From: a virus
IMG/VR virus record: IMGVR_UViG_3300022891_000002
Coordinates: 64,001 to 128,000 of that record
Length of the DNA: 64,000 nt
Strand: one strand, 5' to 3'
Shown here: positions 9,776 to 55,349 of the stretch, in pieces
Layout of the letters: every line of letters starts with the position of its first letter
How positions within the stretch are numbered: the first letter of the stretch is position 1
The notes under the pieces: generated by a model
The model's database searches: none
Seen by the model: the letters and a program-made list of their open reading frames with translations, nothing else
What the model was told of the DNA's origin: nothing
Position numbers and translations under genes: made by a program

Positions 9776-10000
9776 TTACTTTATCTCAAATAAGTTGTTA
9801 TCTATATACCTAATTAACTTATCTTTTGCTTCATCTACTGAATTAGCTACTACATTAAAATAAATCTTACTGTTAGGAGTGTTCTTACCTACTAAACCGT
9901 AGTAATTTTTAATAGCTAGAGTAAGATGATTTTTACTAGCTGTTGTCATCTCAGAGATTTCTATTCTGTAACCTTTATGTATTAAAGATAATATTCCCAT
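9776..10000 (-). CDS. HicB-like domain protein
   Basis: HKGYRIEI...YYGLV...FNVVANSVDEAKDKLIRYID. Confidence 0.45.
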   Translation of the reverse strand: MGILSLIHKGYRIEISEMTTASKNHLTLAIKNYYGLVGKNTPNSKIYFNVVANSVDEAKDKLIRYIDNNLFEIK

Positions 10001-32025: not shown

Positions 32026-32325
32026 TTAAGGTAATGAATATAAATCAGATAAAAGAGAATCCAATCTTACTTTAGTGTCTTCTACCTGAAACTCTAAATA
32101 TTTTCTAAACTTCTCTAGAAAGTTATCTACCTCTTCTTTCATTTTAGCTATTAAAGGTTCTTCTCCAATTTCCCAAGTAATGACTTTGTTGTAGTAATGG
32201 TGATTAGTCCACCAAATATACTTGTCAAACTTTTTATGATAGATAGTACCTACCCAATTTTCACTCTCAAATTTACTTTCACAAGTAGATAGATAGAATC
32301 CTTTATATAAAAAAGTCTTCCTCAT
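32026..32325 (-). CDS. HicB-like domain protein
   Basis: FLYKGFYL...WVGTI...LIAKMKEEVDNFL. Confidence 0.45.
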   Translation of the reverse strand: MRKTFLYKGFYLSTCESKFESENWVGTIYHKKFDKYIWWTNHHYYNKVITWEIGEEPLIAKMKEEVDNFLEKFRKYLEFQVEDTKVRLDSLLSDLYSLP

Positions 32326-32747
32326 TAGTCCTCTCCTAAGTTACTATCATTCATCCAATTAAGACAACTAATAACTACATCCCCATGACACTTCTCATTC
32401 TCCTTACACCAACAAGCTAGTTTAAGAGGGTACTTATCTAGTTCTTGCTTAGACTTAACATTTCTTAATAACTCATTAAGTTCTTCTTTAGCTTCTGTGT
32501 TGTTTTGTACTTGCTCCCACAACCACCTTCTATACTTCTCTACTACTTCTTCTCTTGTACCATCTTTGTTAATATAAAATGGATTAGCTAATAGGCTTCC
32601 TAGTAATTCTGGATAACCTTTAGCTTTGATAGCTCTACCAATGTAAATAATATCTGGATAGTCTTTGGGTTCTAATGATAACTTAGTCAGATAACTTTTT
32701 ACTGATGGTTTCTTTATACAGACTCTTTTTATGTCTAGTTTATTCAT
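32325..32747 (-). CDS. DUF4326-domain protein
   Basis: IYIGR...LANPF....GTREEVVEKYRRW...LACWC....CHGDV. Confidence 0.85.
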   Translation of the reverse strand: MNKLDIKRVCIKKPSVKSYLTKLSLEPKDYPDIIYIGRAIKAKGYPELLGSLLANPFYINKDGTREEVVEKYRRWLWEQVQNNTEAKEELNELLRNVKSKQELDKYPLKLACWCKENEKCHGDVVISCLNWMNDSNLGED

Positions 32748-33082
32748 TTTACTATCTCCATTTCACTACTTATCCATCTATTGCTAGCATTTACAACATT
32801 TCTATCCCTAAAGAAAAGAGTAAACGATTCAGCTTTCTCAAAATTATCAAATAAAAACTGTAAATCTTCTGTATCTCCTTGGTCTGGACGAATCTTAAGT
32901 CCATAATCTGAATATTCAAATCTCACACTAAAGAAGAACCCGTTAATATAGAAACCCATACTAACTAAATCGCTATCTTTAGCTTTATTTCTTTCCATAG
33001 TTTCAATACCAGGAAAGCTTAGATGTAAATCTTTAGTATCTAGCCTTAAAGGATATTGCTTACCCCAGATAGTTATTTTCAT
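32744..33082 (-). CDS. Hypothetical protein
   Basis: N-terminus shared with 9377..9775. Confidence 0.5.
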   Translation of the reverse strand: MKITIWGKQYPLRLDTKDLHLSFPGIETMERNKAKDSDLVSMGFYINGFFFSVRFEYSDYGLKIRPDQGDTEDLQFLFDNFEKAESFTLFFRDRNVVNASNRWISSEMEIVK

Positions 33083-33405
33083 AATCTACTAATTTGAATA
33101 TTTAAAATAGTGTTTCTAGATTCAATTTTTTCTATTTTCTCTACTAACTCAGGTAAACTTTCTAATAGATTTTCTACTGAATATTGCTCACCATCTGTAC
33201 AAGGATATTCTTCTCCAGATTCCCAAGATAAGTAGATAGAATATTTCATCTTTTCTACTTCTTCACGAAACTTCTTTGTTAATAACTCAAAACTATCTTC
33301 CCGTACACTAATACCTAATTCTCTACAAATACCCCAATACTTATTATTTGGTTGAGCATAACATTCTAATTCATAACCTCTAAAAGTATAAATATTATCT
33401 GTCAT
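33079..33405 (-). CDS. HicB-like domain protein
   Basis: YTFRGYELE...YWGICRELG....DSFELLTKKFREEVE; likely start MTDNIY after AGGAG. Confidence 0.5.
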   Translation of the reverse strand: MTDNIYTFRGYELECYAQPNNKYWGICRELGISVREDSFELLTKKFREEVEKMKYSIYLSWESGEEYPCTDGEQYSVENLLESLPELVEKIEKIESRNTILNIQISRL

Positions 33406-33498
33406 AGTTAAGTCTCCTAAACACAACAAAGAGAGCTAAGAAGAACTGCCTCCTTTCAGTCATCTTTCCAACTCTCTGCTACTTCTATTACCGGATTA

Positions 33499-34449
33499 TT
33501 ATTCTTTACCAGTTAATTTAAGATAAAGATTATATTGAGCTTCTAATCTATCTACATAACTTTCTAATGATTTCTTTAAATCTCCCCAACTATTTTCTAC
33601 AAATGGAGTGGGATTATCAACTCCTCTAAGAATTCCTTTACAATATACTGGGTCATCCATTAATTCCAGGACTATTTCTTTATAAATCCAAGTCTCTTTT
33701 TCTTTCTTCAACTCTTCTAATTGAGCAGATATTCTAGCTTGTAGTTGTTCTAACTCTTGAATCTTCTCTTGTTTAGGAGTTAACATCTTTCTTTGTACTT
33801 TTTCTTTCTCTTTTACCACTCTTTCTATTCTGCTATCACAAAGCTGCTGTATTTCTCTTGTACTACTTGCAATACATTTAAAGATAGAATTCTTATGGAA
33901 CTGAACACTCCCAAAGAAACTATTACTATTAGCTCTCTCTCCTTTAATTATTACTTTGTAACCCTGATACTCATAATCTTTTTTAATTATTACTTTGTAA
34001 CCCTGATACTCATAATCTTTCCAATCTACCCAATCAGTACAATACTCATCTACAAATCTCTGAAACTTTGAGACTACTTTATCGTAATGAATACTTTCAA
34101 AACTTTTATTGTATGGTTTAAATTCTCCTATTTCTCCTATATAAAAAACTTTCTTATCTCTAGCTCTTTCTCTAGCGGTAAGAAACATTCTTTCCCCTTT
34201 ATAAGTAATTATACTGGTAGTACCTCTCCAAGCTCTTTTAATATCTTCATAAGTTAGGTCTTTCATATTCTTCTCCATTAGTTTATCTACATTAGACCTA
34301 AAATATTTTAGAATCTTCTCAATATCTGAGTTACCTGAATAATACTCTTGACCATTAACAGTGTAGTTAGCGGTATAATAGTTCTCTTTCTTCTTCGTAA
34401 CTGTTATAAAATGATTTTTGTACTTAAAGACTTTACCGAACTCTCTCAT
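33499..34449 (-). CDS. Protein with about four tandem HicB-like domains
   Basis: FKYKNH..FRSNVD; TYKGE..YIGEI..FQRFVDEY; EYQGYKV..FFGSV; IYKEI..CKG..LESYVD. Confidence 0.5.
   Translation of the reverse strand: MREFGKVFKYKNHFITVTKKKENYYTANYTVNGQEYYSGNSDIEKILKYFRSNVDKLMEKNMKDLTYEDIKRAWRGTTSIITYKGERMFLTARERARDKKVFYIGEIGEFKPYNKSFESIHYDKVVSKFQRFVDEYCTDWVDWKDYEYQGYKVIIKKDYEYQGYKVIIKGERANSNSFFGSVQFHKNSIFKCIASSTREIQQLCDSRIERVVKEKEKVQRKMLTPKQEKIQELEQLQARISAQLEELKKEKETWIYKEIVLELMDDPVYCKGILRGVDNPTPFVENSWGDLKKSLESYVDRLEAQYNLYLKLTGKE
33943..34020. repeat. Perfect 39-bp tandem duplication (in frame, KDYEYQGYKVIIK twice)
   Basis: TTTAATTATTACTTTGTAACCCTGATACTCATAATCTTT at 33943-33981 and 33982-34020. Confidence 0.95.
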
Positions 34450-34451
34450 AG

Positions 34452-35216
34452 CTACATCTCACTAGACAACTTCAATATCTGCTCAATAGAACTTCTATAC
34501 TCCTCTTTCATAGGTAAATCCTCATTTACCTTTAACCTTCTCCTAGTAGTCAAGACTTCTTCTTTAGTTAACGGGTTATAACCAGTCTTCTCATAAGTTT
34601 CCCAATAGATTCCAGTACCTCTTCTCTGCCAAGTAGGAACCTCATTGAAATTAATCCCATTCTCAAATAGAAGTTCATTCTTAAACTCTCTAGTCTTCTC
34701 ATCTAATATATTTGTAGCTTTTCTAGCTGAATGACCTGAACTTCTTAAAGTCCAGTAGCTATAACCATTTAACGCACATCTTGTAGCATCAGCTTGTCTC
34801 CATAAGAAATAGTCAACTACTTGAGATTTATTAACTAAAGAAATAAGTCTACTATCAAAACTAATTATTGAACCAGATAGATTAGTAAAAGTAGAACTAG
34901 CAATACTAGCAGAGATAGACACTAACTTCTCTACACTTCTATTAAATAAATCCCAATCTGTAGGAAATAAAATAGATATCTCATCACTTTCTGTGTAACC
35001 GTAAATTCCACCTAACTCAGTAACTAATGCTTTAGTAGTCTCAACCATCCAAGAGTGAAACGTTAAATCAAAAGGTTTATCAAATTTAGAGTTGTAGGTA
35101 AAATTAGAAAATGAACGTCCATCTACTCTAATTACTGTATAAGTCTCAGGAAGTAATTTAAGATTGTGGAAATACTCTAATGAACGCATTTTAGCTTCAA
35201 AAACATCATTATTCAT
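34452..35216 (-). CDS. thg1: tRNA(His) guanylyltransferase / Thg1-like 3'-5' polymerase
   Basis: VIRVDGRSFS, KPFD, GYTESDEIS, KLVSISAS, FDSR, YFLWRQADA and GINFN..P.WQRRG motifs. Confidence 0.9.
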   Translation of the reverse strand: MNNDVFEAKMRSLEYFHNLKLLPETYTVIRVDGRSFSNFTYNSKFDKPFDLTFHSWMVETTKALVTELGGIYGYTESDEISILFPTDWDLFNRSVEKLVSISASIASSTFTNLSGSIISFDSRLISLVNKSQVVDYFLWRQADATRCALNGYSYWTLRSSGHSARKATNILDEKTREFKNELLFENGINFNEVPTWQRRGTGIYWETYEKTGYNPLTKEEVLTTRRRLKVNEDLPMKEEYRSSIEQILKLSSEM

Positions 35217-35762
35217 TTAGCTCTCCTTTTTATACAACAAATCTCTCAACTCACTAAAATAAGGAACTAACGCTTCTATTCCTTCTCTTACAACTACCTT
35301 AATAACTTCAGCTTGACAGAAAGGAAAATAACCTGCAAAGGGGTCTTCAAAATCATCAAAATCTTTAGCATAAACTAATTTCTGAGGATTTTCTTTTAAG
35401 TGTTTATACCACAACATTACGTAATACTGAATTCCATAATCGTCTATTACAAAACTATTACCTTGTTCGTTAGACTTAACTGGTAGATTTAACTTTCCTA
35501 TTTGCCAACTTACCTGTCTTATTCTCAGTTTTTCACAACTTTTAACATCTCTCCAACTAGAAGGGGCATCACAAGTATCAAATCTCTTTGCACATTGATA
35601 ATGGTTCTCGATTGAATCTTTCTTGCCAAACGCAGTTACATAACAAAAGAAGGGACTGAACTCTTTATTTCCTTTAGAGTGACATTGAAGAATCCTCTTA
35701 CCCTCTTCAACTCTAAATTCACCTTCAAATACTTTCTTGTACATATTAATTCTCTCTAGCAA
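35217..35762 (-). CDS. Putative NADAR-related (DarG1-like) protein
   Basis: LQCHSKGNKEFSPF...SIENHYQCAKRF...YYVMLW..HL..NP...FEDPF....CQAEVI resembles DarT1-associated NADAR antitoxins. Confidence 0.4.
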   Translation of the reverse strand: MLERINMYKKVFEGEFRVEEGKRILQCHSKGNKEFSPFFCYVTAFGKKDSIENHYQCAKRFDTCDAPSSWRDVKSCEKLRIRQVSWQIGKLNLPVKSNEQGNSFVIDDYGIQYYVMLWYKHLKENPQKLVYAKDFDDFEDPFAGYFPFCQAEVIKVVVREGIEALVPYFSELRDLLYKKES

Positions 35763-36165
35763 AATGGTCGTAATATACTAACTCATCTTCTTCATTTAGA
35801 AAACCGTAAACACAATACTCCTCATTAAAATCAGAGGTACTTGTAACTTCTCTTATTTCACTTAAATTACCAGGAACAAAAGGATAGAAACTTCCCCATT
35901 TCTTGTGATAAAACTTTCTACTATAAATTGGTCGAGTATTAGTCGTATCACTAAGTATTCGTTCTGGCCTATTAAAAGTTATATCGTCGTTCTCATTAAT
36001 GACATAGCCAACAGCAACTTTTATAGGTCGGTAAACTCCAAACTCAATATTGTCTTTATAAACTGGTCTAAGTATCTCTTTTCTTGACGGAACTCTTTCT
36101 ACTACTGGTTCTTCTGATTCTGGTTCACTTTTAGTTCCAAAGAAATAGCCACGAAACATTCCCAT
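35746..36165 (-). CDS. Hypothetical protein (family with 42233..42526 and 44951..45586)
   Basis: Twice-repeated VG(Y/F)L(N/D)xxxxxx(F/Y) motif. Confidence 0.55.
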   Translation of the reverse strand: MGMFRGYFFGTKSEPESEEPVVERVPSRKEILRPVYKDNIEFGVYRPIKVAVGYVINENDDITFNRPERILSDTTNTRPIYSRKFYHKKWGSFYPFVPGNLSEIREVTSTSDFNEEYCVYGFLNEEDELVYYDHFAREN

Positions 36166-36180
36166 AATAATTCTCCTAAA

Positions 36181-36345
36181 CTAACTACCAATCAAATCAT
36201 TTACTTGTTCCCGAAAACTCTTCTCTAATCCATCCTTACTCTTACTAGATATATAAATTCCTAACTTTTCACATTCTCCATCATATTGTTCAGACATTGA
36301 GTTATAAGTAATAACTAATTCGTACCCTTTATAGCTGTAATACAT
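36181..36345 (-). CDS. Minimal HicB-like protein (54 aa, not in ORF track)
   Basis: MYYSYKGYELVITYNSMSEQYDGECEKLGIYISSKSKDGLEKSFREQVNDLIGS. Confidence 0.6.
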   Translation of the reverse strand: MYYSYKGYELVITYNSMSEQYDGECEKLGIYISSKSKDGLEKSFREQVNDLIGS

Positions 36346-36352
36346 TTTTATG

Positions 36353-36508
36353 CTAACTAACAGAGTTTACGTATCTAACAAAATCTCTCTTCAACTCATC
36401 CTCATAATCAAAGTTATTACTATAATTCAATTCTCTACAAGTACCGTAATAGATACAGTTATCTTTGAAATAAACTAACTCGTACTTTAGATAGAAATAA
36501 CTATTCAT
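36353..36508 (-). CDS. Minimal HicB-like protein (51 aa, not in ORF track)
   Basis: MNSYFYLKYELVYFKDNCIYYGTCRELNYSNNFDYEDELKRDFVRYVNSVS; GAGGAG RBS. Confidence 0.55.
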   Translation of the reverse strand: MNSYFYLKYELVYFKDNCIYYGTCRELNYSNNFDYEDELKRDFVRYVNSVS

Positions 36509-36525
36509 TGTTTTTCTCCTCTCCT

Positions 36526-37065
36526 CTAATATAAATAAAATACAGGATTCATTAAATTATAGTTTTCGTAATCTGTACCTAATATATCTAACAACTTTTG
36601 AGGTACTTCATCTCCAAATAAACTCCTAGACGTAAAACAAGACTTCTCATCTCTACTAAAGAAATACTCTAAACCTTTATTCAAAATCATTTTCTCGCAG
36701 AAATAATACCAGTTAAGAGAATATATCTCAATTAGGAAACGTAGAAGCTCGTTAATTTTGTATTTACTGATATTAAGTTCATTTAACTGAATAGACTCAA
36801 CAATCTCTTTACTGTTAGATAAACAAACTACAGCAGGATAAATATAAGAAGAATCTAATTTGTACAACTTATACTCAATAGCAGTAGATAAATAATTAGG
36901 GATAGATTTATAAGTTTGCTGGTTTCTATTAGCTAACCAATGATTGCTCTTTAAATCTACTAAATATTCAGTTCCATTTTCAGACCGAACATTTGGTGAG
37001 GTAATACTGATAGCAGGTAAACCAAACCTACCTTCTTTAGTGTCAAATATAGTGTCTTGATTCAT
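36526..37065 (-). CDS. Hypothetical protein, paralog of the C-terminal domain of 37989..38699
   Basis: Shared IFDT..LP..SI..GTEY.VD..S..WL...TAIE.KL...SRDEKS.F....LFGD...VPQKLLDIL..D...NP.FYLY. Confidence 0.65.
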   Translation of the reverse strand: MNQDTIFDTKEGRFGLPAISITSPNVRSENGTEYLVDLKSNHWLANRNQQTYKSIPNYLSTAIEYKLYKLDSSYIYPAVVCLSNSKEIVESIQLNELNISKYKINELLRFLIEIYSLNWYYFCEKMILNKGLEYFFSRDEKSCFTSRSLFGDEVPQKLLDILGTDYENYNLMNPVFYLY

Positions 37066-37070
37066 TTTGT

Positions 37071-37352
37071 TTACTCCTCATCTAATAAATAGAATTCAAT
37101 ATAAGTTCCATCCGTAAAGATAAATCTATTCTTCCCCTCTACTTTTTCATTACTCTTAATTATTTTACCTAAATAAGATTGAGATAAATTTAACTGCTCA
37201 CTAACTGGAAAATAATAAGGATAAAGATTGTTACCTTTAGCAAACATTAATAGTAGATAGTAAGGAGTTCCATAACCACTATCTACAAGTAAGTCTGATA
37301 CTAAGCCATACTCAATCTTGAATAATCTAGCTCCATTTAATTTATCCGTCAT
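37071..37352 (-). CDS. Hypothetical protein
   Basis: 93-aa coupled ORF. Confidence 0.5.
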   Translation of the reverse strand: MTDKLNGARLFKIEYGLVSDLLVDSGYGTPYYLLLMFAKGNNLYPYYFPVSEQLNLSQSYLGKIIKSNEKVEGKNRFIFTDGTYIEFYLLDEE

Positions 37353-37657
37353 TTGATTCTCCCTCGATATTGATTATGTAACCTATCCAACACTTCAATA
37401 ACTTCCGGTAAAGCTTCTGGATAATAACGAAGCATAGAGTTGAACAAATCTTGAGCTAGTATCTCTTGACCATATTGAATCTGTTCTTTTTCTTTTATAG
37501 CATTATCAACTAATTTTTTAAAATCTTTCTTTAGATAATCTGTGTCTGAACTCGTATCTTCATACCCTAATTCTTCACATTTTCCACTGTAATAATAGCC
37601 ATGAAATTCTACAACTAGAAGGTAGCCTTTATATAAGAAATTATTATTCTCTTCCAT
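37349..37657 (-). CDS. HicB-like domain protein
   Basis: FLYKGYLLVVE...YYSGKCEELG...LKKDFKKLVD. Confidence 0.55.
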   Translation of the reverse strand: MEENNNFLYKGYLLVVEFHGYYYSGKCEELGYEDTSSDTDYLKKDFKKLVDNAIKEKEQIQYGQEILAQDLFNSMLRYYPEALPEVIEVLDRLHNQYRGRIK

Positions 37658-37671
37658 TTTGATTTTCCTCT

Positions 37672-37884
37672 TTATTTGTTAACTGACTGATAAAAATTCT
37701 CATCCCAAGAAGACAATAATTCTGCTGTATCTTCATCGTCAAATACTTGAATTAGTGCATCTACAGCATTTGATATTTTCTCTACTCTATCTGATGAATT
37801 TAATCCCCTATCACAATCTCCTCTAAGAGCAATACTTTTACCAACACATTCCATGATTTTTCTTTCACGACGAGTTAATAACAT
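37672..37884 (-). CDS. Hypothetical protein
   Basis: 70 aa, AAGGAG RBS. Confidence 0.5.
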   Translation of the reverse strand: MLLTRRERKIMECVGKSIALRGDCDRGLNSSDRVEKISNAVDALIQVFDDEDTAELLSSWDENFYQSVNK

Positions 37885-37916
37885 TGTTTTCTCCTTATTA
37901 ATTAGTAGAAATAGAA

Positions 37917-37976
37917 TGTAGACATTTCTTGAAATCTGTGGACTATATTTAGTACAAATTTTAGAAAAAGTCTACA
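37917..37976. repeat. 60-bp intergenic imperfect palindrome
   Basis: TGTAGACATTTCTTGAAAT...ATTTTAGAAAAAGTCTACA; same 60-bp span as the sites flanking the helicase-like gene. Confidence 0.65.
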
Positions 37977-37988
37977 CTCCACTATTGT

Positions 37989-38699
37989 TTAATACAAGTA
38001 GAATAGTGGATTAGCACACATATAATTACCAAAATCTGTATCTAAAATATCTAGTAACTTTTGTGGCACCACATCTTCCTCTCTAGCACAATACGTGTCC
38101 CCAAATAAATCCTCTGTTTCAAATTTAGATTTCTCATCTCTACTAAGTAGATAGGCTAACCCTTTAGTATTTATTATTGCTATACAAAAATCAATCCACA
38201 TTTCAGGATTAATTTCCAGCAGTTGACGTAACACTTTATTTACTACTTCTCTCGTTGCTTTTAGTTCTGACTGTTGGATAGATTCAATTATCTTAGTGTC
38301 AAAAGTAGTATAAGAAGAAATACTGTACGCACCTAACTTAAACAATTTACTCTCTATAGCAGTAGCTAAATGCTTTGGTACATCTTTATTACAATTACGT
38401 CCCCACTGTAACCAATAACGACTTTCTACATCTACTACATACTCTGTTCCCTTAATACTCACAACAGGTAAACTAAGAAACTTTTTATGAGTATCAAATA
38501 TATCTGCTCCTAATTCTTCTATTCTTTCGTCTACTAATTGTTCAAATTTCTTTTTTAGGTTAGATACGGTATCTGTAGTGAAATTATACTTGTACTGGTC
38601 TACTTTTACTAACTCAACAATTTCCCCTACTAGACAATTTCTATCTAAATCAGTTGTTATTTTAAGAGTAAAACCTTCGTATCTTAGTGTATCAGTCAT
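37989..38699 (-). CDS. HicB-like N-terminal domain fused to a domain paralogous to 36526..37065
   Basis: LRYEGFTLKITTDLDRNCLVGEIV...FTTDTVSNLKKKFEQLVDE, the closest match here to the HicB consensus. Confidence 0.6.
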   Translation of the reverse strand: MTDTLRYEGFTLKITTDLDRNCLVGEIVELVKVDQYKYNFTTDTVSNLKKKFEQLVDERIEELGADIFDTHKKFLSLPVVSIKGTEYVVDVESRYWLQWGRNCNKDVPKHLATAIESKLFKLGAYSISSYTTFDTKIIESIQQSELKATREVVNKVLRQLLEINPEMWIDFCIAIINTKGLAYLLSRDEKSKFETEDLFGDTYCAREEDVVPQKLLDILDTDFGNYMCANPLFYLY

Positions 38700-38717
38700 A
38701 AATTTTGTTTCCTTTTT

Positions 38718-38779
38718 ACTGTTACTTTTTTATTATCAGCTAAATCCACTAAGCCCACAGATTAATAAAAATTACCGCA
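38718..38779. repeat. Left bipartite site (arm B - spacer - arm A) flanking helicase-like copy 2
   Basis: ACTGTTACTTTTTTATTA...ATAAAAATTACCGCA; inverted copy at 40641-40702. Confidence 0.85.
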
Positions 38780-38791
38780 AATTATCTAGAG

Positions 38792-38846
38792 TTGCTACTT
38801 TTTAAATAATTTGTGATATACTATAAAGGTACACGAATTTACCGCA
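38792..38846 (+). promoter_or_regulatory. Promoter of helicase-like copy 2 overlapped by extra arm B and arm A half-sites
   Basis: TTGCTA...TGA-TATACT (extended -10); arm B TGCTACTTTTT at 38793 and arm A TTTACCGCA at 38838-38846. Confidence 0.55.
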
Positions 38847-38851
38847 ACTCA

Positions 38852-40639
38852 ATGATTATTATCGACGCACCTCCTAATTCCCGTTATTGTTCAGAATTTA
38901 TGACTGAACTGCCTAAAGGGATAATTGACAAACATGAAACTGGTGTAGGAGCATCAGTATTAGCTCTTGAAGACCAAAATCCGTACATCTTAGCAGTTCC
39001 TACTATTGAGATTATCAGAAACAAAGTAGAGCAATATCCTAACTATAGAAGAGAAGAAAAGATATTTGGTTTTTATGGTGGAGTTAAAGAAAGAGATTTA
39101 CTTTTCTATGCGAACTCTACTAAAATCCCAAAGATAATGGTTACTTATGATAGTTTTGATAGAGTTTCTAAATTGCTATCTAGTGATAAAGATAAATATA
39201 GAGTTCTAGTAGATGAGTTCTCTGACTTATTAGATGCTTACTCTTATAGAGATGCAGCAATTGACAGGTTACTTAATGCGGTTAAAGATTTTGATTATGT
39301 AACTTATATCTCGGCTACTCCTATTAAGTCTGAATACTACCCAGAATGTTTGAAGGGATTGGATGAGTATCAGATTAACTGGGGAGAATATACAAAAGTC
39401 AAAGTAGAAAGGAAGAAGACTAATAAACCTTACCAGTTAGCTTGTAATATTATTGAGGCGTATAAAGCTGCTGGGGATGAAGGTATTAAAATGCCTAACG
39501 GTCAGTATAGTAAGTCCGCTTATTTCTTTGTTAACTCCGTAAATTCAATTCTAAATATAATAGAAGCTGCGGATTTACGTCCTAGTGAAGTTCGAGTTAT
39601 TTGTGCTAATAACAAAGTTAACCAAAGCAAGATGGACTTATTTCAAATAGAAAAAGCACTTGACCCAGAGAAGAAATTCAACTTTATAACTTCTACGGCT
39701 TTTAAAGGATGTGACTTCTACTCCGAAACTGGAGTTATCTATGTAGTTAGCAATACTCAGAATAAGAACACTTTAATTTCTATTGACACTGATATCAGAC
39801 AAATAGCTGGTAGAATTAGAACTCTTAGTAATCCTTTTAGGAAGGAAATTTATCATCTTTACAATACTGACTCTAGCTTATTATCTCAGGAAGAGTTTGA
39901 CGAATTAATTAAAACCAAGGTAGAGCAAACTACTAATCTACTATCTCTCTACCACAAAGGTAATGAATCTGAGCAGAAAGCTTTCTTAATAGATTGGGAG
40001 AGTAATACTAAATATGGTTACTCAGATGATAACTATATTAGTAAAAGTATTGATGGTGAACTCTACTTCAATCACTATATGATGCTCAATGATAAGAGAA
40101 GATGGGAAATATCTAGTAACGTCTACAGAGATGGATTAAGTGTTAGAGAAGCTTATGTAGAAGCCGGATTTGAATTAGTAGCTAATGACCAGGACTTCGT
40201 TAACGTTCAAAATGAAAACAGTTTTATTCATAGACTAAGTAGTAAGTCTTTCAAATCTAATTGTTTGAGCTATATTGATAATGAAAACGAGAGGGTCTAC
40301 TTAGGAGATAGATTCCCTCTCATCAAAGAAAGTTATGAACAACTAGGAGCTGAGAGAATGAAAGCTGTCAACTATCTACCGGACAGACTTAAGAACGAGC
40401 TTAAGTTTAAGAACGTAGATATTCAACAGTGTATCAAATCTGAGCTAAGAAGACTACTAGCTGTAGGAGAGGTTTACACACTATCTCACCTAAAGACTGT
40501 AATTAACGATGTCTATACACGACTACACTTAAGCAAAAAAGGTAAAGCTAGTGATGTTACCCAGTATTGCTCTACTAGAACTAAGAGTATTCGGATAGAT
40601 GGAAAGACAGTTAAAGTAATGGAGATTTTAGAAGAATAA
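38852..40639 (+). CDS. Divergent SF2 helicase-like protein, copy 2
   Basis: DKHETGVGAS, VLVDEFS, ISATP, FFVNSV, TSTAFKGCDF and QIAGRIR motifs; basic C-terminus LKTVINDVYTRL....KGKASDV; likely start ATG 38852 (MIIIDAPP). Confidence 0.78.
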   Translation: MIIIDAPPNSRYCSEFMTELPKGIIDKHETGVGASVLALEDQNPYILAVPTIEIIRNKVEQYPNYRREEKIFGFYGGVKERDLLFYANSTKIPKIMVTYDSFDRVSKLLSSDKDKYRVLVDEFSDLLDAYSYRDAAIDRLLNAVKDFDYVTYISATPIKSEYYPECLKGLDEYQINWGEYTKVKVERKKTNKPYQLACNIIEAYKAAGDEGIKMPNGQYSKSAYFFVNSVNSILNIIEAADLRPSEVRVICANNKVNQSKMDLFQIEKALDPEKKFNFITSTAFKGCDFYSETGVIYVVSNTQNKNTLISIDTDIRQIAGRIRTLSNPFRKEIYHLYNTDSSLLSQEEFDELIKTKVEQTTNLLSLYHKGNESEQKAFLIDWESNTKYGYSDDNYISKSIDGELYFNHYMMLNDKRRWEISSNVYRDGLSVREAYVEAGFELVANDQDFVNVQNENSFIHRLSSKSFKSNCLSYIDNENERVYLGDRFPLIKESYEQLGAERMKAVNYLPDRLKNELKFKNVDIQQCIKSELRRLLAVGEVYTLSHLKTVINDVYTRLHLSKKGKASDVTQYCSTRTKSIRIDGKTVKVMEILEE

Positions 40640-40640
40640 C

Positions 40641-40702
40641 TGCGGTAATTTTTATAAACGTCTATGACTCGTATGCCCAGAGATTAATAAAAAAGTAGCA
40701 GT
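40641..40702. repeat. Right bipartite site (arm A' - spacer - arm B'), starting 2 bp after the stop codon
   Basis: TGCGGTAATTTTTAT...TAATAAAAAAGTAGCAGT is the inverted copy of 38718-38779. Confidence 0.85.
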
Positions 40703-40804
40703 TAGGAGTGATAGGTTATTATTCAAGATATGTTTAGATGTTTCTAAATTTAACTCAAATAATAGTCTACCACTCTCTATAAGTTGATTAGAAATTAGAA
40801 GTTT

Positions 40805-41182
40805 TTAAATCTTATATCCTGAGAAGAAATGTCCTTTTACTTCATCAGGACTGCTTAGATAAAATGCGTTTTTGTAGAGATTATAGATATTATTAATTTT
40901 CATATCTATGGTAACTGCATCATAATCATTAGCATCTATCTCTTCTCTTAGTATTTCTAGCTGTCTTTCATATTGAACCATTAATGGATTGTTTATAAGC
41001 TTAAAGTGTTTTCTATTTTCTCTCCTTATGTCTAGATGTTTCTTGAATTGACTTTGTAATCTTTCTACAGAAGTATCTTTCTTGAAGAAATAGACGTTTG
41101 AACAAATACCATAAACAAATCCATTTGCTTCAGTTACAGTCATAAAGATATCGTCATCTTCGATTAGAGATTCAACTGTCAT
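40805..41182 (-). CDS. HicB-like domain protein (divergent)
   Basis: FMTVTEANGFVYGICS...DTSVERLQSQFKKHLD. Confidence 0.45.
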   Translation of the reverse strand: MTVESLIEDDDIFMTVTEANGFVYGICSNVYFFKKDTSVERLQSQFKKHLDIRRENRKHFKLINNPLMVQYERQLEILREEIDANDYDAVTIDMKINNIYNLYKNAFYLSSPDEVKGHFFSGYKI

Positions 41183-41267
41183 AATTCTTCCTCTAGTTAA
41201 GATTTTGTATCAGGTATCTACAAGGGTATAGGCTACAAGAATGAGATTGTTTCTACATTGATTTATT

Positions 41268-41287
41268 AGGGAGAAACTAATCTCCCT
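41268..41287. terminator. Intergenic hairpin
   Basis: AGGGAGA-AACTAA-TCTCCCT. Confidence 0.45.
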
Positions 41288-41300
41288 TTCTATTATCTAC

Positions 41301-41669
41301 TTATTCTTTCTTACTGGTTGATTCAAAATACTCTCGTCTAATATCTGCTTCACTTAAATCTAATAAATCACCGAATAACTCATGAATACTTTTAAGTTCT
41401 TGTGCCGTTCTACTAGCAGAAAAAGTAACAGAATCAAAAGATAAAGCTCTTAAATACGAGTAATATGTATGAAGTATTTTATCTTTGTAGGTTATTCTAG
41501 AATCTACTTCTTTCTTAAACTTGTTAAAAAGATTGTCTACATTAGTACCTTTAAAGACATAAGTAGGTGAAAATTCTGGACAAGTGCTTTCATAATAAGT
41601 AATACCGTCATCTTCTGCTAATGTAGCTACTCTTAATAGATAGCCTTTGTACTTCAATTCGTCTGACAT
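41301..41669 (-). CDS. HicB-like domain protein
   Basis: LKYKGYLLRV...YYESTCPEF...FKGTNVDNLFNKFKKEVD. Confidence 0.55.
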   Translation of the reverse strand: MSDELKYKGYLLRVATLAEDDGITYYESTCPEFSPTYVFKGTNVDNLFNKFKKEVDSRITYKDKILHTYYSYLRALSFDSVTFSASRTAQELKSIHELFGDLLDLSEADIRREYFESTSKKE

Positions 41670-41727
41670 AATTTTGTTATCTGTTTTGATTTAGTTTGCT
41701 GAAATGTAGACGCACCCTATTATTTAT

Positions 41728-42216
41728 CTACTCCTCAACTACTTTCTCATAAACCTTTACTACTTTAACTTCTTCTCTACAAGTCAATAAATAACAAGTT
41801 TCGGTAATATCAGGTTTCCAATCTCCAGTATCATATTTACCTCCTCCAAAGTAATAAGTAAATCCTATAAAGTAATCAGATAGACCAGTTATAGGAATAG
41901 CTAATTCTTTACTTGGATATTCGTAATCGTCGTCTCTAGTACCTGTTTCTGCTCCTATATCCACTAGGTCAGACTTCATATCCGAGATAGTGTCAGATAG
42001 AAATCCAGTATCATATATTTCGTGATATAGGTTTTCACAGAATTCCTCATCAAAGTCAATACTTATTATTTTCTGGATGTCTACTTCTAGAGATTTGATA
42101 TCTTCTTCTAAGTTAGTATGGAATCTAATATAATCTTTATATCTATCTCTTCTTTTTATTTCTTCCCAGACTTTAAGTAGAATCTCTCTGTACAAATAGG
42201 AGGTAGCTTTCTTCAT
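41728..42216 (-). CDS. Conserved phage hypothetical protein
   Basis: SKELA......IGFTYYFGGGKY....W......L.C.EE.KVV.VY.KV motif. Confidence 0.55.
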   Translation of the reverse strand: MKKATSYLYREILLKVWEEIKRRDRYKDYIRFHTNLEEDIKSLEVDIQKIISIDFDEEFCENLYHEIYDTGFLSDTISDMKSDLVDIGAETGTRDDDYEYPSKELAIPITGLSDYFIGFTYYFGGGKYDTGDWKPDITETCYLLTCREEVKVVKVYEKVVEE

Positions 42217-42232
42217 TATTCTTTCTCCTTAG

Positions 42233-42816
42233 TTATAGATACTGGTCATAAAATACAATATCATCATTAAGGTCAATATAACCAATAGAACAGTTTAATC
42301 CATCAACAATAGTAGTAATCTCTTTAACTTCTTTAACTTCGGATAACCAACGATAACTACATTCACCATAATCCCCATTAGTATAGAAACAGATATCGTA
42401 GAGATTTACATGAGTCACTCTATTTTTAAGAGGTTTGTGGAATATTACTTCGTTGTTAGAGTTCAATATTCCAACTTCTACGAATTTATCAGTACCATCC
42501 GGGGACTTAAATACTTTTTCGGTCATTCTTTCTCTCCAATACCTTCTTCTTTCTTAACTCGTCAGAGACTCGTTCCGAGAAACTTGAAACCTAATAACAA
42601 CTGTAAAAGCTCGTTAGCAGATTCAGGAGTATTCTTTAGTATTTTTTGAACTAGGAAGATACAGGGTTCTACAGTCCTCTTCTCTTCTACTCCTTGGACA
42701 AATCTATCTTCTATTTGTTGAACATAAATAGAATCTGCATAATCTTTAATTTCTGGTTGATTGAGTATTTCTGCTATTGAGTTAAGTGATTCTTGTAACT
42801 GTTCTTCGTTAGTCAT
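42233..42816 (-). CDS. Two hypothetical proteins (42233..42526, 42562..42816)
   Basis: The first belongs to the VGYLN repeat family. Confidence 0.5.
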
Positions 42817-42993
42817 TTCTTTCTATTTACTATTTCTTTTCTAGCTTCAGTAGCAATTATTTTTACAGAAACCCACTTATCTATTAAAGTGTCATCTCCG
42901 TAGTGTCCCAATGCTTCTAAGATAGAAACAGCATCCTTTTCGTCTATCTCTTTAAGAAACTTTTTACCTATCATTTCTTCTATACTCATTTAT

Positions 42994-43215
42994 TTAATCC
43001 CGAAATGCTAAAGCTTCATTCCTAACTTCTTCCTCATATTCTCTATCTACAACTTTTATAAACTCATCTATAGCAGGTGAGTAGCTACCATAATATCCAC
43101 AAAAATTAAAACATAGATTTTTACAAGTACCTTTGATGAAAGATATCCCGTTAAGCTTTGGATGAATTTCTACTTCTAATTTGTAACCTAAATACTCAAC
43201 AATTAGCTTTTTCAT
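42994..43215 (-). CDS. HicB-like domain protein
   Basis: EYLGYKLEVE...IKGTCKNL...IDEFIKVVD. Confidence 0.5.
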   Translation of the reverse strand: MKKLIVEYLGYKLEVEIHPKLNGISFIKGTCKNLCFNFCGYYGSYSPAIDEFIKVVDREYEEEVRNEALAFRD

Positions 43216-43385
43216 TTCTTTTTCCTCTCAATGTTCCAGATTAAGAAAATAACAGGTAATAACAATAAAGCTGCAACAATAGGTAAGTCGAGCCATTCGT
43301 TACCCGTTAGTGAGTGATAAGTAGTTAGTTCAATCTCATCATGTTTTGAATGAAAATCTGCTCAGTGCCAATAGATAGGATTCAT
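43212..43385 (-). pseudogene. Small membrane-protein gene with an in-frame TGA at codon 8
   Basis: MNPIYWH*ADFHSKHDEIELTTYHSLTGNEWLDLPIVAALLLLPVIFLIWNIERKKK; TAATG- and ATGA-coupled to both neighbours. Confidence 0.5.
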
Positions 43386-43621
43386 TATCTACTCATCCAA
43401 AATAAATAACTGTTACTTTCACTTTCTCTTCGGTCATCTTCTTTCTTCCATAATCGGATATATTCATTAACTAATCTTCTAAATTCAGGTATTACATAGT
43501 CATATCCTTTTGAAGTATTAACTGCGTAACAGATTTTATCACAGTTAGCTACTATACGAGTTCCTGCTTCTTGATGTACCTCTTCTAGTTCTAAGATGTA
43601 GTTTTTATATTCTAGTTTCAT
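43385..43621 (-). CDS. HicB-like domain protein
   Basis: LEYKNYILELE...IVANCDKI...IPEFRRLVNEY. Confidence 0.5.
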   Translation of the reverse strand: MKLEYKNYILELEEVHQEAGTRIVANCDKICYAVNTSKGYDYVIPEFRRLVNEYIRLWKKEDDRRESESNSYLFWMSR

Positions 43622-43808
43622 TGTCTTCTCCTATAATTCCCACTTCTTTTTCATATTCTTCTTTACTCAACCATTCACTAGCTAAATCGTTCAGTAGTTC
43701 TTTAGCTAGATTTTCTAGTAACCAAGCTCTTTCTTTTAAAGGTTTCTTTTGAGCTTCTTCTAGTCGTCTTTTATATGTGTAATAGAAATCACTGTTAATA
43801 CTCATCAT
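43605..43808 (-). CDS. Hypothetical protein
   Basis: Coupled 67-aa ORF. Confidence 0.45.
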   Translation of the reverse strand: MMSINSDFYYTYKRRLEEAQKKPLKERAWLLENLAKELLNDLASEWLSKEEYEKEVGIIGEDNETRI

Positions 43809-44277
43809 CTATTTCTCCTATCATTTTATTAAGATAAATTACTTCCTTCTTCCATTTTTCTACTTCAGCTTGTAGTTGTATATTTTCTTCTGCTAACTGA
43901 TTTTGATATTTATAGTTAATCTGGTTATCTACTTGTCTTTCTAATTCTGTTAGTAGATGAGTAAGGGAATCGGATTCCAATCCTATAACATCTATTTCGT
44001 CATTAAGCAATATATCCCCTACTAAAGTATTTCTCTCTGCGTCTAACCAAACTTTGAACTTGTAATCTCTATAATCAACCCAAAGAATATGGTTTTCTAT
44101 TTCAGATAACAGCTTTTCTTCTTTTTTAATAGAAAGTAGTAAGTCAGCAACTAATTCTTGGATTGTTTCTATTACAGGATACTCATTACAAACCCTATCC
44201 CAACCATCATCATTAGTAATAGACTTGAAGTTTTTAACAATACTGCGATAACGTTGCATTTGCTTTTTACTATTCAT
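43795..44277 (-). CDS. Protein with an internal HicB-like domain
   Basis: DYRDYKFKVWLDAERNTLVGDI....IDVIGLESDSLTHLLTELERQVD. Confidence 0.55.
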   Translation of the reverse strand: MNSKKQMQRYRSIVKNFKSITNDDGWDRVCNEYPVIETIQELVADLLLSIKKEEKLLSEIENHILWVDYRDYKFKVWLDAERNTLVGDILLNDEIDVIGLESDSLTHLLTELERQVDNQINYKYQNQLAEENIQLQAEVEKWKKEVIYLNKMIGEIDDEY

Positions 44278-52924: not shown

Positions 52925-55075
52925 TTATTTCTCATTCCAATTTTTACAAGTTAGTTTGTTAGGGTCAAAACATACATCTACCGGAATTGACTTAATCCAG
53001 TATCTCAATTCAGTATGTAAACAATTCATTACTGCACTATTAATCTCAAATGAATATTCAGATAAACCAATCCAGTTAAGTTCATCGTGGCAGTTATTAC
53101 AAAATCTAGCTTTCCAATGAGGATTATTAAAGAACTCTATCTCTGCTTTACCTTGAGCAAATTTAAGAATATCTGCTTCTCCACAGAGCCAAATTAGAGA
53201 AATAGAATCTGTATAAGGAACTTCATAAGTAGTATAGGTTTTACCTGTTTTAGTTGTAAAAGTCTTCTCTTGCTTTTTTAAATGTACCGTTCTATTAGTA
53301 AAAGTCTTACATTTACCGTAATGCCCTGAAGTAGGTTGACCATTAGCATTAAAGAAAGGGAATTCTATATTATACTTGTTACACTCTTTAACATAGTTTT
53401 GGATAAATTCGTAGAGTACATTATAAGTTTTTCTATAAGCTTGCTGAATTAATTTACATTGTTCTTCACTTACTTCTACCCCATTCTTTCTAAAGCTTGT
53501 TTGTATAGTTTTAGCTCCTGCCTGATTGAGACCTGAGTAATTAGCTTCCTTCCCGAACTTCCTGTACTTAGATATTAGTGGGTCAGGATTATCTTGTTTA
53601 TATAAAGTTACTGCTTCGTCATACCCAAAATTGTGACCATCATAAATAGCAATAGAGTTACCCATAATAATATGAGCATCTTTACCATTACCATAAATCT
53701 CTAATAATGTGGGGTCTTTAGATAATTCAGTACAGATTCTATAGTGACTCTGACTTAAATCCATAATTCCCAAAAAATAACCTTCTGGGGCTTTAAAGAA
53801 TGTTCTAAAGTCAGGTAATCCTTCTTCTTTAAAAAAACTTGGTGTTTTAGCTGGGTTCTGAAGTTGAGCGCCAATGTTAATAGCTTTCTTACTTCCCTTA
53901 GAATTTTTGTATTTTAAAGTACCATTACAACTTGACCTACCTGAACCTGAAGGAGTCATTTGTCTATAATTAGTACGAACAGAATAGAAGTCTTCCTCAG
54001 GATTCTTCCAAGCTACATCTCTTATACCTTCTGCATATTGAATAAGAACGTTCAAAGTCCTCATCCTTAGTAGAGCTTTAGCTTCTGGATACTTAACTCT
54101 TTTTAGTGCTTCTACGTCTAATGACTGTAATTTAAGCTCCGGCCATTTCTCATTAAAAGCTTGTCTTAGTAACTCTACTTGTCCCCAATTTACATCTGGA
54201 AAACTAACTGTGATAATCTCTTTATATTCTTCTAACTTTTTCCTATACTCAAAAACATTCTTTTCTAATAAATCCTTATCAATAGGAAAACCAAATACTT
54301 CCATTTCAATAAAAGCAGGAAGTACAAGAGATTCTGCCATTACGGAGTAATATAAGTCTTCTCTTATAACTAACTCCTGAATATATGGAAATAATTGTAG
54401 AGGTAAGATTGAGTCATTTCCTGAATAATTATACTTAGCATTTGAAATTCTCCATCCCCAATCTTCTTTCTGTTCACTCTTATCTATTTCAAATTTAGTG
54501 TTGAAAAGAATGTTTACTCGTTCAGTAATAGCTTTAAGAGAGTGAGATAATAAACATCTATCTTCTCTATTTTTAGATTTATTACCAGGGATTACTTCTA
54601 CTCCTGCCCAAATTACTTGCGAACATAACATTAAATCTCTACAGCACAGTATTTTAATACCTAAATGGTAGAGTAGAAAGTTACCATCAAACTTTAGATT
54701 AACCCCTACTACCGGGACTTTTAGATTCTCACATCTCTCTTTAAATACTTGGTAGAATCTACTAGCAAAAAACTCTTTCTTCTTTTCATCTATATTATCT
54801 AAGTTTCCACCTAAATCATATATTAGTGCATAATATTGACCATCTACCTTGATTCCTACTGAGATAAGTCTTATTAACCCAAACTTAAAATATAATGCGC
54901 TATATTCTTCGTCACCATGAGTTTCTAAGTCAGTAGAGAATATCTTAGCAACTGAGAACTTATCTACCCATTCATTCCATACTTTATCTTCTACTTTGCC
55001 ATGAACAATTATATTTGGCTCAAGAGGAACATCTTTTGCTAGTATATCTGACCACTTTAACTGTAGAGTTTTCAT
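52925..55075 (-). CDS. polA: DNA polymerase family A with 3'-5' exonuclease (divergent)
   Basis: ExoI DLET, ExoII NLKFD, ExoIII YSGND; SGRSS...LQN; motif A DLSQSHYRI; motif B RKFGKEANYSGLNQ; motif C CHDEL. Confidence 0.9.
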   Translation of the reverse strand: MKTLQLKWSDILAKDVPLEPNIIVHGKVEDKVWNEWVDKFSVAKIFSTDLETHGDEEYSALYFKFGLIRLISVGIKVDGQYYALIYDLGGNLDNIDEKKKEFFASRFYQVFKERCENLKVPVVGVNLKFDGNFLLYHLGIKILCCRDLMLCSQVIWAGVEVIPGNKSKNREDRCLLSHSLKAITERVNILFNTKFEIDKSEQKEDWGWRISNAKYNYSGNDSILPLQLFPYIQELVIREDLYYSVMAESLVLPAFIEMEVFGFPIDKDLLEKNVFEYRKKLEEYKEIITVSFPDVNWGQVELLRQAFNEKWPELKLQSLDVEALKRVKYPEAKALLRMRTLNVLIQYAEGIRDVAWKNPEEDFYSVRTNYRQMTPSGSGRSSCNGTLKYKNSKGSKKAINIGAQLQNPAKTPSFFKEEGLPDFRTFFKAPEGYFLGIMDLSQSHYRICTELSKDPTLLEIYGNGKDAHIIMGNSIAIYDGHNFGYDEAVTLYKQDNPDPLISKYRKFGKEANYSGLNQAGAKTIQTSFRKNGVEVSEEQCKLIQQAYRKTYNVLYEFIQNYVKECNKYNIEFPFFNANGQPTSGHYGKCKTFTNRTVHLKKQEKTFTTKTGKTYTTYEVPYTDSISLIWLCGEADILKFAQGKAEIEFFNNPHWKARFCNNCHDELNWIGLSEYSFEINSAVMNCLHTELRYWIKSIPVDVCFDPNKLTCKNWNEK

Positions 55076-55349
55076 ATGTATACCTATCTACTGTTTTCCA
55101 GAAATCTTTTGCATAAGAATAAGGAGACTCACCTACTACAAATATGTCCATACTTTCTCCGTTTAAATAGATACACCCTGAGTAAGGAGCATCGCAATCA
55201 TCACCATACTGACTCTCTACTTTACAGACAAATCCCGCGTAATGTAAATCTTGGTTACAAAAATCTCTTTGCCATCTTATTAGCTCATCTATACCTACTA
55301 AGTTACTTAAATACTCTCGAATATCTTTGTGTTCTAAATTATTACTCAT
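55020..55349 (-). CDS. Protein with a HicB-like domain
   Basis: LHYAGFVCKVE...YSGCI...FVVGESPYSYAKDFWKTVDRY. Confidence 0.5.
   Translation of the reverse strand: MSNNLEHKDIREYLSNLVGIDELIRWQRDFCNQDLHYAGFVCKVESQYGDDCDAPYSGCIYLNGESMDIFVVGESPYSYAKDFWKTVDRYTYENSTVKVVRYTSKRCSS

Follow-up and report, generated by a model that had tools for sequence, protein, structure and literature searches.

What does a phage do with more than a dozen antitoxin-like domains, none of which is accompanied by a toxin? In the 64,000-nt stretch of DNA analyzed here (the window), the motif Y(K/R)GY...G.C.EL...L...F...VD.Y recurs at a frequency far above chance, and a sequence-only reading had assigned it to about 15 genes and to the N-terminal half of HicB antitoxins. 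Phage defence is now considered the main role of toxin-antitoxin modules, and defence islands commonly contain HicA loci; to our knowledge, next to nothing has been reported on how a phage handles many such toxins at once. The source is an uncultured phage, represented by a 150-kb record that is ~49% complete according to CheckV. We regard the record as that of a phage because Portal_Mu occurs in syntenic loci and because its portal and PolA proteins match phage records, both being distantly similar to counterparts in phages of filamentous cyanobacteria. Neighbouring genes include several of nucleic-acid metabolism, namely Thg1, HD_4, ThyX, AlkB-like, and dUTPase.

Membership of the family was determined by a leave-one-out HMM procedure, in which each copy in turn was left out of the profile and sought among the ORFs of all six frames of the window. 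Nine copies (33079, 33499 [residues 77-139], 36181, 36353, 37349, 37989, 41301, 42994, and 43385) were recovered as one family, with E values of 7e-4 to 6e-12. A wider profile, built from the window copies together with relatives from a library of 1.8 billion proteins, additionally detected 43795 (4e-6), 9776 (1.5e-3), and 40805 (4.5e-3), further weak repeats inside 33499, and an extra copy beyond the window at genome positions 150059-150358 (9.5e-9). The robust set comprises 13 copies of a ~55-aa HicB-N-like domain in 10 genes between 33079 and 44277, with a maximum of four copies per gene (ORF 33499). Judging from these alignments, 9776 and 40805 are probably family members, and 32026 and 55020 are possible ones, for which alignment over the whole motif is weak (32026, hhalign pairwise E 0.0015 over 59 columns and HMM E 0.15; 55020, hhalign pairwise E 0.006 over 54 columns and HMM E about 1). 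Most of the genes originally listed were thereby retained; 57035, of which only 23 columns align, and 57288, for which alignment is absent, were rejected. The genes, all on the minus strand, and one internal repeat are as follows.

9776..10000, minus strand: probable distant member of 74 aa, away from the main cluster (hhalign E 0.008, 55 columns).
32026..32325, minus strand: possible member in which a big insertion separates the strands from the helix.
33079..33429, minus strand: one HicB-N-like domain (~33238-33402) plus an unrelated C-terminal tail (leave-one-out E 3e-7; ortholog P0054, 57% identical).
33499..34449, minus strand: 316-aa protein of four tandem HicB-N-like units, at about 34261-34434, 34042-34218, 33805-34032, and 33511-33693 (HMM domains).
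33943..34020, within ORF 33499: perfect in-frame tandem duplication (39 bp x2) in unit 3 (TRF 100% match, score 156).
36181..36345, minus strand: bare 54-aa HicB-N-like protein (leave-one-out E 1e-9; AF2 model; L005 ortholog 78% identical, dN/dS 0.51).
36353..36508, minus strand: bare 51-aa HicB-N-like protein (leave-one-out E 2e-4; L005 ortholog 82% identical, dN/dS 0.28).
36526..37065, minus strand: stand-alone form of the C-terminal module of 37989 (BLASTP 45% identity, E 1e-43, against residues 67-236 of 37989).
37349..37657, minus strand: N-terminal HicB-N-like domain (37490-37651) plus a conserved 40-aa tail (leave-one-out E 6e-12; L006 ortholog 73% identical, dN/dS 0.10).
37989..38699, minus strand: N-terminal HicB-N-like domain (38514-38699) plus a 170-aa module (phrog_9151 E 2e-5; leave-one-out E 4e-6).
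40805..41182, minus strand: probable diverged member, alignable over the latter half of the domain only (hhalign E 0.05).
41301..41669, minus strand: N-terminal HicB-N-like domain (41487-41669) plus a conserved C-terminal tail (leave-one-out E 3e-11; phrog_9151 E 8e-3).
42994..43215, minus strand: near-bare HicB-N-like protein of 73 aa (leave-one-out E 2e-5).
43385..43621, minus strand: near-bare HicB-N-like protein of 78 aa (leave-one-out E 3e-8; L005 ortholog 95% identical, dN/dS 0.29).
43795..44277, minus strand: 160-aa protein with a mid-protein domain (~43915-44079) followed by a coiled-coil tail (phrog_9151 E 0.016; L005 ortholog 50% identical).
55020..55349, minus strand: possible member, statistically insecure, with the visible motif Y.GF..KVE...Y.G.I...F...VD.Y.

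The estimate of about four tandem copies in ORF 33499 was borne out both by alignment with eight orthologs and by an AF2 model (mean pLDDT 74.5), which displays four sheet-plus-helix units, with a long coiled-coil helix (residues 197-250) separating units 3 and 4. The 39-bp duplication in this ORF is missing from all eight aligned orthologs. Likewise, 36181 and 36353, previously unannotated, are genuine genes, as indicated by the identities and dN/dS values of their L005 orthologs, and for 41301 both the domain and the tail could be aligned with P0035. A promoter and terminator scan of the 31-45.6 kb region returned fewer sites than in shuffled sequences.

We searched 1.8e9 proteins with a profile made from the nine window copies alone, which yielded 102 matches. 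The weaker matches (E 1e-5 to 1e-3) were canonical bacterial HicB antitoxins of the PF05534 (RHH) type, in which PF05534/RHH spans residues ~54-104, directly after the matched N-domain. More specifically, the gene for one of these proteins (P0048) shares 4 bp with a gene that scores as HicA_toxin above the Pfam cut-off; another (P0039) lies on a short contig where no hicA is visible. Multi-domain matches of bacterial appearance were also obtained (P0041 and P0047), the gene context of P0047 being uninformative. In addition, the phrog_9151 family ('HicB-like antitoxin') matches 37989, 41301, and 43795. Pfam, NCBIfam, and PDB sequence searches with the copies and their profile gave nothing significant, because PF05534 models the linker and RHH half only and not because the copies are unrelated to HicB; genes of this type are annotated as hypothetical since the HicB N-domain of this subfamily is unmodelled in Pfam and NCBIfam. 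A homologous-protein search with 37989 returned a self-match only. The phage copies and canonical HicBs share Y-K-G-Y, G, and F...VD.Y, with an i, i+4, i+7 spacing along the helix; we infer that the residues so spaced belong to the hydrophobic core, and they are therefore uninformative as to whether a HicA-contact surface has been retained. The copy beyond the window appears transitional, as its sequence retains the canonical linker (DYLEFCQELNKEP) and ends at the very point at which the RHH would be expected to start; it is 47% identical to a database protein (P0100).

The AF2 model of 36181 (pLDDT 95.8) consists of four strands followed by a helix (strands at residues 8-15, 20-25, and 30-34; helix at 37-52), such that the three-strands-then-helix arrangement of the partial RNase H-like N-terminal HicB fold is present in the predicted structure. 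Foldseek superimposed it on the HicB N-domain of B. pseudomallei (6g1c; TM 0.72, rmsd 1.3 A over 46 residues) and on 2yzt (TM 0.71), and VIA comparison gave Z 5-6.2 against 2yzt, 1wv8 (TTHA1013), 6g1c, and 6g1n, and 4.6-4.7 against 6u0i and 3k6q. Structural scores are middling for so small a domain. The best VIA match was MMOD, an unrelated inhibitor subunit (Z 6.7), and similar scores were obtained for dsRBDs, release-factor domains, and an anti-CRISPR N-domain; the fold is therefore a common binding module. Profile matches and predicted structure together identify the ~55-aa module as the N-terminal, HicA-binding-type domain of HicB antitoxins of the YKGY type, in which the C-terminal half is PF05534 (RHH), in keeping with the homology first proposed.

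HicB antitoxins are recognized by an adjacent, usually overlapping hicA gene and by a DNA-binding half, and the phage copies have neither; the latter is not strictly required, as Classes 1 and 2 lack it. The absence of HicA, noted earlier for the window, extends to the entire 150,360-bp record (PF07927, no match at E<=10), and PF07927 was also missing from the gene lists of the 21-kb syntenic stretches of two related contigs, L005 and L006. As also noted earlier, the C-terminal DNA-binding domain is lacking: the copies gave no match to PF05534, RHH, or HTH, and the proteins either terminate after the helix or run into unrelated tails. The phage carries an antitoxin homolog without a cognate toxin, which is the hallmark of an orphan antitoxin. 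Co-folding of the 37989 N-domain with the HicA adjacent to P0048 (L007), whose N-terminus is cut by the contig end, gave a score of 0.00 in a run without controls, which weighs on neither side of the binding question.

The closest relative of every copy is an ortholog in a related uncultured phage contig (32-96% identity), compared with 25-39% identity to the best paralog in the same genome, and dN/dS between orthologs ranges from 0.10 to 0.59. The copies therefore constitute an old, maintained, sub-functionalised family rather than recent junk. Recent junk duplication was ruled out, given that the copies are mutually 25-39% identical and that each has its own ortholog. The proposed survey of related phages revealed the same arrays, with at least 12 domains within 21 kb in the syntenic L005 and up to five copies per protein. 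Among 50,697 GenBank phages, neither megablast of the region nor tblastn of a five-domain ortholog (P0011) produced a match.

We tentatively favor, at somewhat below even odds, the explanation that the copies act as orphan-antitoxin counter-defence against host HicA-type toxins, as suggested by homology and by analogy. HicA is inhibited when helix alpha1 of the HicB N-domain packs against its sheet, with no need for the DNA-binding domain, HicBs devoid of that domain exist, and HicA loci are found in defence islands (Gerdes 2024, PMC10865869); orphan antitoxin homologs also serve phages against DarTG (PMC11825919). The copies would be made in the infected cell, each one there binding and blocking its own target among the host HicA-type RNase toxins, or close structural relatives of these, that toxin-antitoxin defence sets free. 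Proteins with several units in tandem (four in ORF 33499 and up to five in orthologs) might operate as multivalent sponges, with the variable tails contributing other functions. A stronger version, which we consider rather doubtful, is that a large-phage lineage maintains, as a heritable stock, a dozen or more toxin-binding modules that diversified from a single captured HicB, each tuned to a different HicA-type abortive-infection toxin and some serving as multivalent sponges; if true, this would be a viral 'antitoxin library' mirroring the expansion of hicAB loci in the host itself.

Several observations count against orphan-antitoxin counter-defence, among them the middling structural scores, the commonness of the fold, and the probable core location of the conserved residues. 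The phage-type copies are far closer to one another (E 1e-10 to 1e-22) than to any bacterial HicB (1e-5 or worse), several are fused to unrelated modules, and we know of no antitoxin with an architecture of long tandem arrays. The closeness of the copies to one another fits re-targeting too, a possible though less favored explanation: the HicB N-domain, captured once, would have radiated as a general small protein-binding module against non-HicA host targets, be they defence effectors of other kinds or targets in host takeover, with tails and fused modules doing the work and the domain docking or oligomerising. Such a radiation of its own, far from bacterial HicBs, is accompanied by a fused module that is also encoded alone (the 37989 tail, at 36526-37065), by 41301-type tails common to other phages, and by coiled coils in 33499 and 43795. 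Similar folds inhibit unrelated proteins (MMOD, the AcrIF24 N-domain, and T7 Gp1.2), and many solitary 55-70-aa phage proteins share the fold. On the other hand, 36181, 36353, 42994, and 43385 are bare or near-bare, which means that in these four proteins function must reside in the domain itself; moreover, HicA is the sole experimentally known partner of this domain class, and the 47%-identical copy beyond the window is still near canonical HicB.

It is improbable that the domain instead binds phage or host RNA through its partial RNase H/dsRBD-like fold and tunes expression or RNA stability during infection. Structural neighbours do include the dsRBDs of Loquacious, Staufen, HYL1, and Dicer, as well as 3kwr, a 'putative RNA-binding protein', but their Z scores (4.3-5.2) are within chance fold resemblance; the setting among nucleic-acid metabolism genes is compatible with such a role, yet RNA binding by HicB N-domains is not known, and the dsRBD fold of the HicAB pair is that of HicA. 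Least probable of all is that the copies are remnants of complete phage-borne hicAB addiction or superinfection-exclusion modules, serving the phage's own toxins or decaying, with the toxins lost or located in the unsequenced half that the ~49% completeness of the record would allow for, because toxin-antitoxin partners are normally adjacent and, for 10 or more genes, no hicA lies alongside, whether in this record or in the 21-kb stretches of L005 and L006, and because purifying selection and retention as orthologs show that the copies are not decaying.

Should orphan-antitoxin counter-defence be correct, conserved, multi-copy HicB domains free of toxin and regulator would represent a new design, namely, a repertoire rather than a single inhibitor, and the family would be an immediate source of small (50-60 aa) natural binders to try against HicA toxins. 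If the targets are not HicA, the family would still illustrate how a phage can adapt an antitoxin domain as a scaffold for binding in general.

Our literature searches found no paper on such a HicB-domain expansion, which agrees with the sequence-only reading's statement that it knew of no description, but HicBs lacking the DNA-binding domain and two-domain HicBs (both with HicA), as well as counter-defence by orphan antitoxins, are already on record. Stand-alone TTHA1013/UPF0150 proteins (1wv8, 2yzt, and 2dsy) are likewise solitary and small and have the same fold (Z 4.8-6.2), whereas they are bacterial and single-copy, with no sequence relation to the phage copies detected in searches. Small HicBs of Classes 1 and 2 are of the UPF0150/PF15919 sequence type and are not known to belong to the YKGY type. 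They too present a bare 60-100-aa HicB fold without a DNA-binding domain and occur in cyanophage, as in the hicAB of Planktothrix phage PaV-LD, but are always paired with hicA, often overlapping it, and single-copy (Gerdes 2024, PMC10865869). Class 7 HicB, with two DUF1902 domains, similarly has more than one HicB-fold unit per polypeptide (Gerdes 2024, PMC10865869). In contrast to the phage arrays, it has two units, is hicA-paired and bacterial, and belongs to another sequence family. Among phage-encoded antidotes, T4 Dmd acts against RnlA/LsoA. Orphan antitoxin-like proteins, such as the DarG-like NADAR enzymes that oppose DarTG1 (PMC11825919) and the chimallivirus DarG2-like protein (PMC13309987), resemble the present copies in being the antidote half without the toxin in a virulent-type phage, yet these are single genes with demonstrated activity, whereas we describe a large, diversified family of another antitoxin class known from sequence. 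Also closely comparable are the YKGY-type HicBs with PF05534 RHH (COG4226-like; Class 4 hicAB, Gerdes 2024, PMC10865869), with which the phage copies share a homologous ~55-aa N-domain, the YKGY...G...F..VD.Y signature, a strand-strand-strand-helix order and, in one copy, the canonical linker. Unlike these antitoxins, the phage proteins are without the RHH half and an adjacent hicA, and they are encoded by at least 10 genes per genome rather than one, some of them containing as many as 4-5 domains and some being fused to unrelated tails.

Eight clear N-terminal copies could be aligned on the motif described in the sequence-only reading, and iterative searches of the six-frame ORFs of the window with an HMM of these eight added the second unit of ORF 33499, giving nine copies. 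In leave-one-out searches, all nine were recovered by the remaining eight (E-values from 7e-4 to 6e-12) and ranked directly below them, a recovery far beyond chance, so that the profile describes one coherent family. A wider profile, comprising the window copies and relatives from a public protein library, added 43795 (4e-6), 9776 (1.5e-3), and 40805 (4.5e-3), weak extra repeats within ORF 33499, and one copy beyond the window:

Genome positions 150059-150358 (L009:5059-5358, the locus at the end of the phage's own record), minus strand: further HicB-N-like copy outside the window, wider-profile E-value 9.5e-9

The roughly 15 motif genes of the sequence-only reading thus resolve into 10 robust genes (13 domains), two probable genes, and two possible ones (32026 and 55020, which align weakly over the full motif); membership of 57035 and 57288 was unsupported in the profile alignment, and both were rejected.

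Pfam and NCBIfam searches of the individual copies returned no match for any of them, and phrog_9151 ("HicB-like antitoxin") matched 37989 (2e-5), 41301, and 43795. We regard as decisive for the identity of the domain an exhaustive search of the nine-copy profile against 1.8 billion proteins, which matched 102 cluster representatives. The top matches were phage-type proteins carrying one to six copies without the DNA-binding part, and the weaker ones (1e-5 to 1e-3) were classical antitoxins (e.g., library proteins P0039, P0048, P0063, P0076, and P0096), in which PF05534, the "HicB family" ribbon-helix-helix (RHH) half, spans residues ~54-104, straight after the matched N-domain. Thus, the Pfam model covers only the C-terminal half of this HicB subfamily, and this accounts for the blank annotations of the copies. 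Moreover, the P0048 gene overlaps by 4 bp a gene scoring as HicA_toxin above Pfam's threshold, indicating that the bacterial relatives are genuine hicAB antitoxins. Retrieval of PF05534-bearing antitoxins by the window profile, along with the phrog matches, bears out the HicB N-domain homology proposed from the motif.

The fold is consistent with this assignment. The AF2 model of 36181, a bare domain of 54 aa, has a pLDDT of 95.8 and shows a short N-terminal strand followed by three strands and a helix. Foldseek matched it to the Burkholderia pseudomallei HicB N-domain 6g1c (TM 0.72, rmsd 1.3 Å over 46 residues) and to 2yzt (TM 0.71). A second, Foldseek-independent structure search returned 2yzt, TTHA1013 (1wv8), 6g1c, 6g1n, Escherichia coli HicB3 (6u0i), and the antitoxin 3k6q with Z-scores of 4.6-6.2, which are middling and are also reached by unrelated small inhibitors and dsRBDs. 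The fold likeness is therefore corroborating and does not by itself settle the identity. The conserved residues follow the i, i+4, i+7 pattern that we would expect for core positions and cannot tell whether the HicA-contact surface is kept.

As the sequence-only reading had supposed, no RHH or HTH domain was found in any copy. HicA likewise gave no match at E ≤ 10, and this holds beyond the window for the entire 150,360-bp record (49% complete according to CheckV); the same search was positive in 13 of 14 control genomes. Since the fold and homology are those of a HicB antitoxin and two of its usual operational marks, a neighbouring hicA gene and the DNA-binding domain, are absent, we class the copies as HicB N-domain homologs rather than as antitoxins of TA modules. 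The record-end copy, whose N-terminus is cut off by the end of the record, lies much nearer to bacterial HicB than the other copies do. It shares 47% identity with database protein P0100, in which both the YKGY motif and the linker are canonical. The copy itself retains the canonical linker DYLEFCQELNKEP and ends exactly where the RHH strand of canonical proteins starts. It looks like a truncated form that could have been the starting point of the family's radiation.

Paralogs in the window share 25-39% identity, and each copy has a nearer ortholog in other uncultured phage contigs (32-96% identity); a tree of copies and relatives agrees in placing orthologs nearer than paralogs. By these comparisons, the copies are old. 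Ortholog pairs gave dN/dS values of 0.10-0.59, indicative of purifying selection, relaxed in part, on these genes, among them 36181 and 36353, which had so far lacked annotation. Contigs of this kind come from the samples JGI 3300018916, ENA ERZ27334432, SRR30832913, and ERR3719143. The expansion recurs in other phage contigs: the syntenic contig L005 (146.5 kb, sharing Thg1, HD_4, ThyX, Portal_Mu, and a GT2 sulfotransferase) carries 12 or more domains within 21 kb, L006 resembles it, and the unrelated-looking L003 (151 kb) encodes a four-domain protein and one further copy. Nothing similar was found in any GenBank phage.

The family is also modular. The tail of 41301 reappears in family members of other phages, and the tail of 37989, a 170-aa module (window 37989-38480, minus strand), also stands alone at 36526-37065 (minus strand; 45% identity). 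The ESM-Atlas look-alikes of this module are AlwI/FokI-type restriction endonuclease cleavage domains (score 0.90), only a weak lead to such a function. For ORF 33499, alignment with eight orthologs gave four units and a coiled coil, and the AF2 model (mean pLDDT 74.5) gave four sheet-and-helix units (residues 6-63, 78-136, 140-~215, and 253-313), in agreement with the four tandem copies first estimated; a fifth unit is present in orthologs P0011, P0016, and P0053. A perfect 39-bp in-frame tandem duplication (two copies, window 33943-34020) doubles 13 residues (KDYEYQGYKVIIK) in the third domain. It is missing in all eight orthologs and is thus either of very recent origin or an assembly artefact.

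The window, which spans bases 64001-128000 of the IMG/VR record, has a GC content of ~32%. Between 30 and 48 kb, nearly every gene is encoded on the minus strand, and numerous small ORFs without known family alternate with recognisable nucleic-acid enzyme genes, among the annotated neighbours being:

Window 31258: HD_4 hydrolase
Window 32325: DUF4326
Window 34452: Thg1
Window 45718: AlkB-like oxygenase
Window 47085: dUTPase

ThyX (PF02511) was detected in the syntenic loci. The portal gene matched solely Pseudanabaena phages (24-26% identity) and PolA matched Nodularia phages best (25%), so the phage is at most distantly related to phages of filamentous cyanobacteria. The sole plus-strand gene within the array (window 38813-40639) encodes a 608-aa protein without a Pfam match, and genes of 605 aa and 597 aa occupy the same inverted position in L005 and L006. 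L006 also carries a UvrD-type helicase split by a Hint/homing-endonuclease (intein) domain (L006:5738-8386), and in L005 HD_4 and ThyX flank a GIY-YIG/NUMOD gene, which the window lacks. The array region also holds a second, small family of paralogs (window 35746-36165, 42233-42526, and 44951-45586, all minus strand); it has no matching Pfam family and shares the C-terminal motif (I/V)GY(L/I)(D)LNDD(I/L)V(F/Y)Y, which occurs twice in ORF 44951. DUF2442 is usually partnered with DUF4160 in TA-like pairs. The DUF2442 gene at window 47613-48056 (minus strand; 28.8 bits versus a Pfam threshold of 23.9) has no DUF4160 partner here and is thus a second toxin-less antitoxin-like gene close to the array.

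The copies are a genuine and conserved gene family of an unusual kind, and what is concluded here about their structure and evolution is almost certain. With respect to function, the main rival explanation is that the HicB N-domain was re-targeted as a general binding scaffold. In its favour, the phage-type copies lie far from bacterial HicBs, some are fused to unrelated modules, and the same fold occurs in many unrelated inhibitors. The most economical reading is orphan antitoxin-like inhibition of host HicA-type toxins, and we infer that diversification would fit the copies to many toxins and that tandem arrays may act as multivalent sponges. Such a counter-defence function is plausible, if tentative. 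Our literature search found no account of phages with toxin-less HicB domains in multiple copies or in tandem. In HicAB pairs, the helix of the HicB N-domain packs against the HicA sheet and thereby inhibits the toxin, for which the DNA-binding domain is not needed; HicBs lacking that domain are known, and hicA loci are grouped in defence islands (Gerdes 2024, PMC10865869). Orphan antitoxin homologs with which phages overcome TA defences are represented by DarG-like proteins (PMC11825919, PMC13309987).
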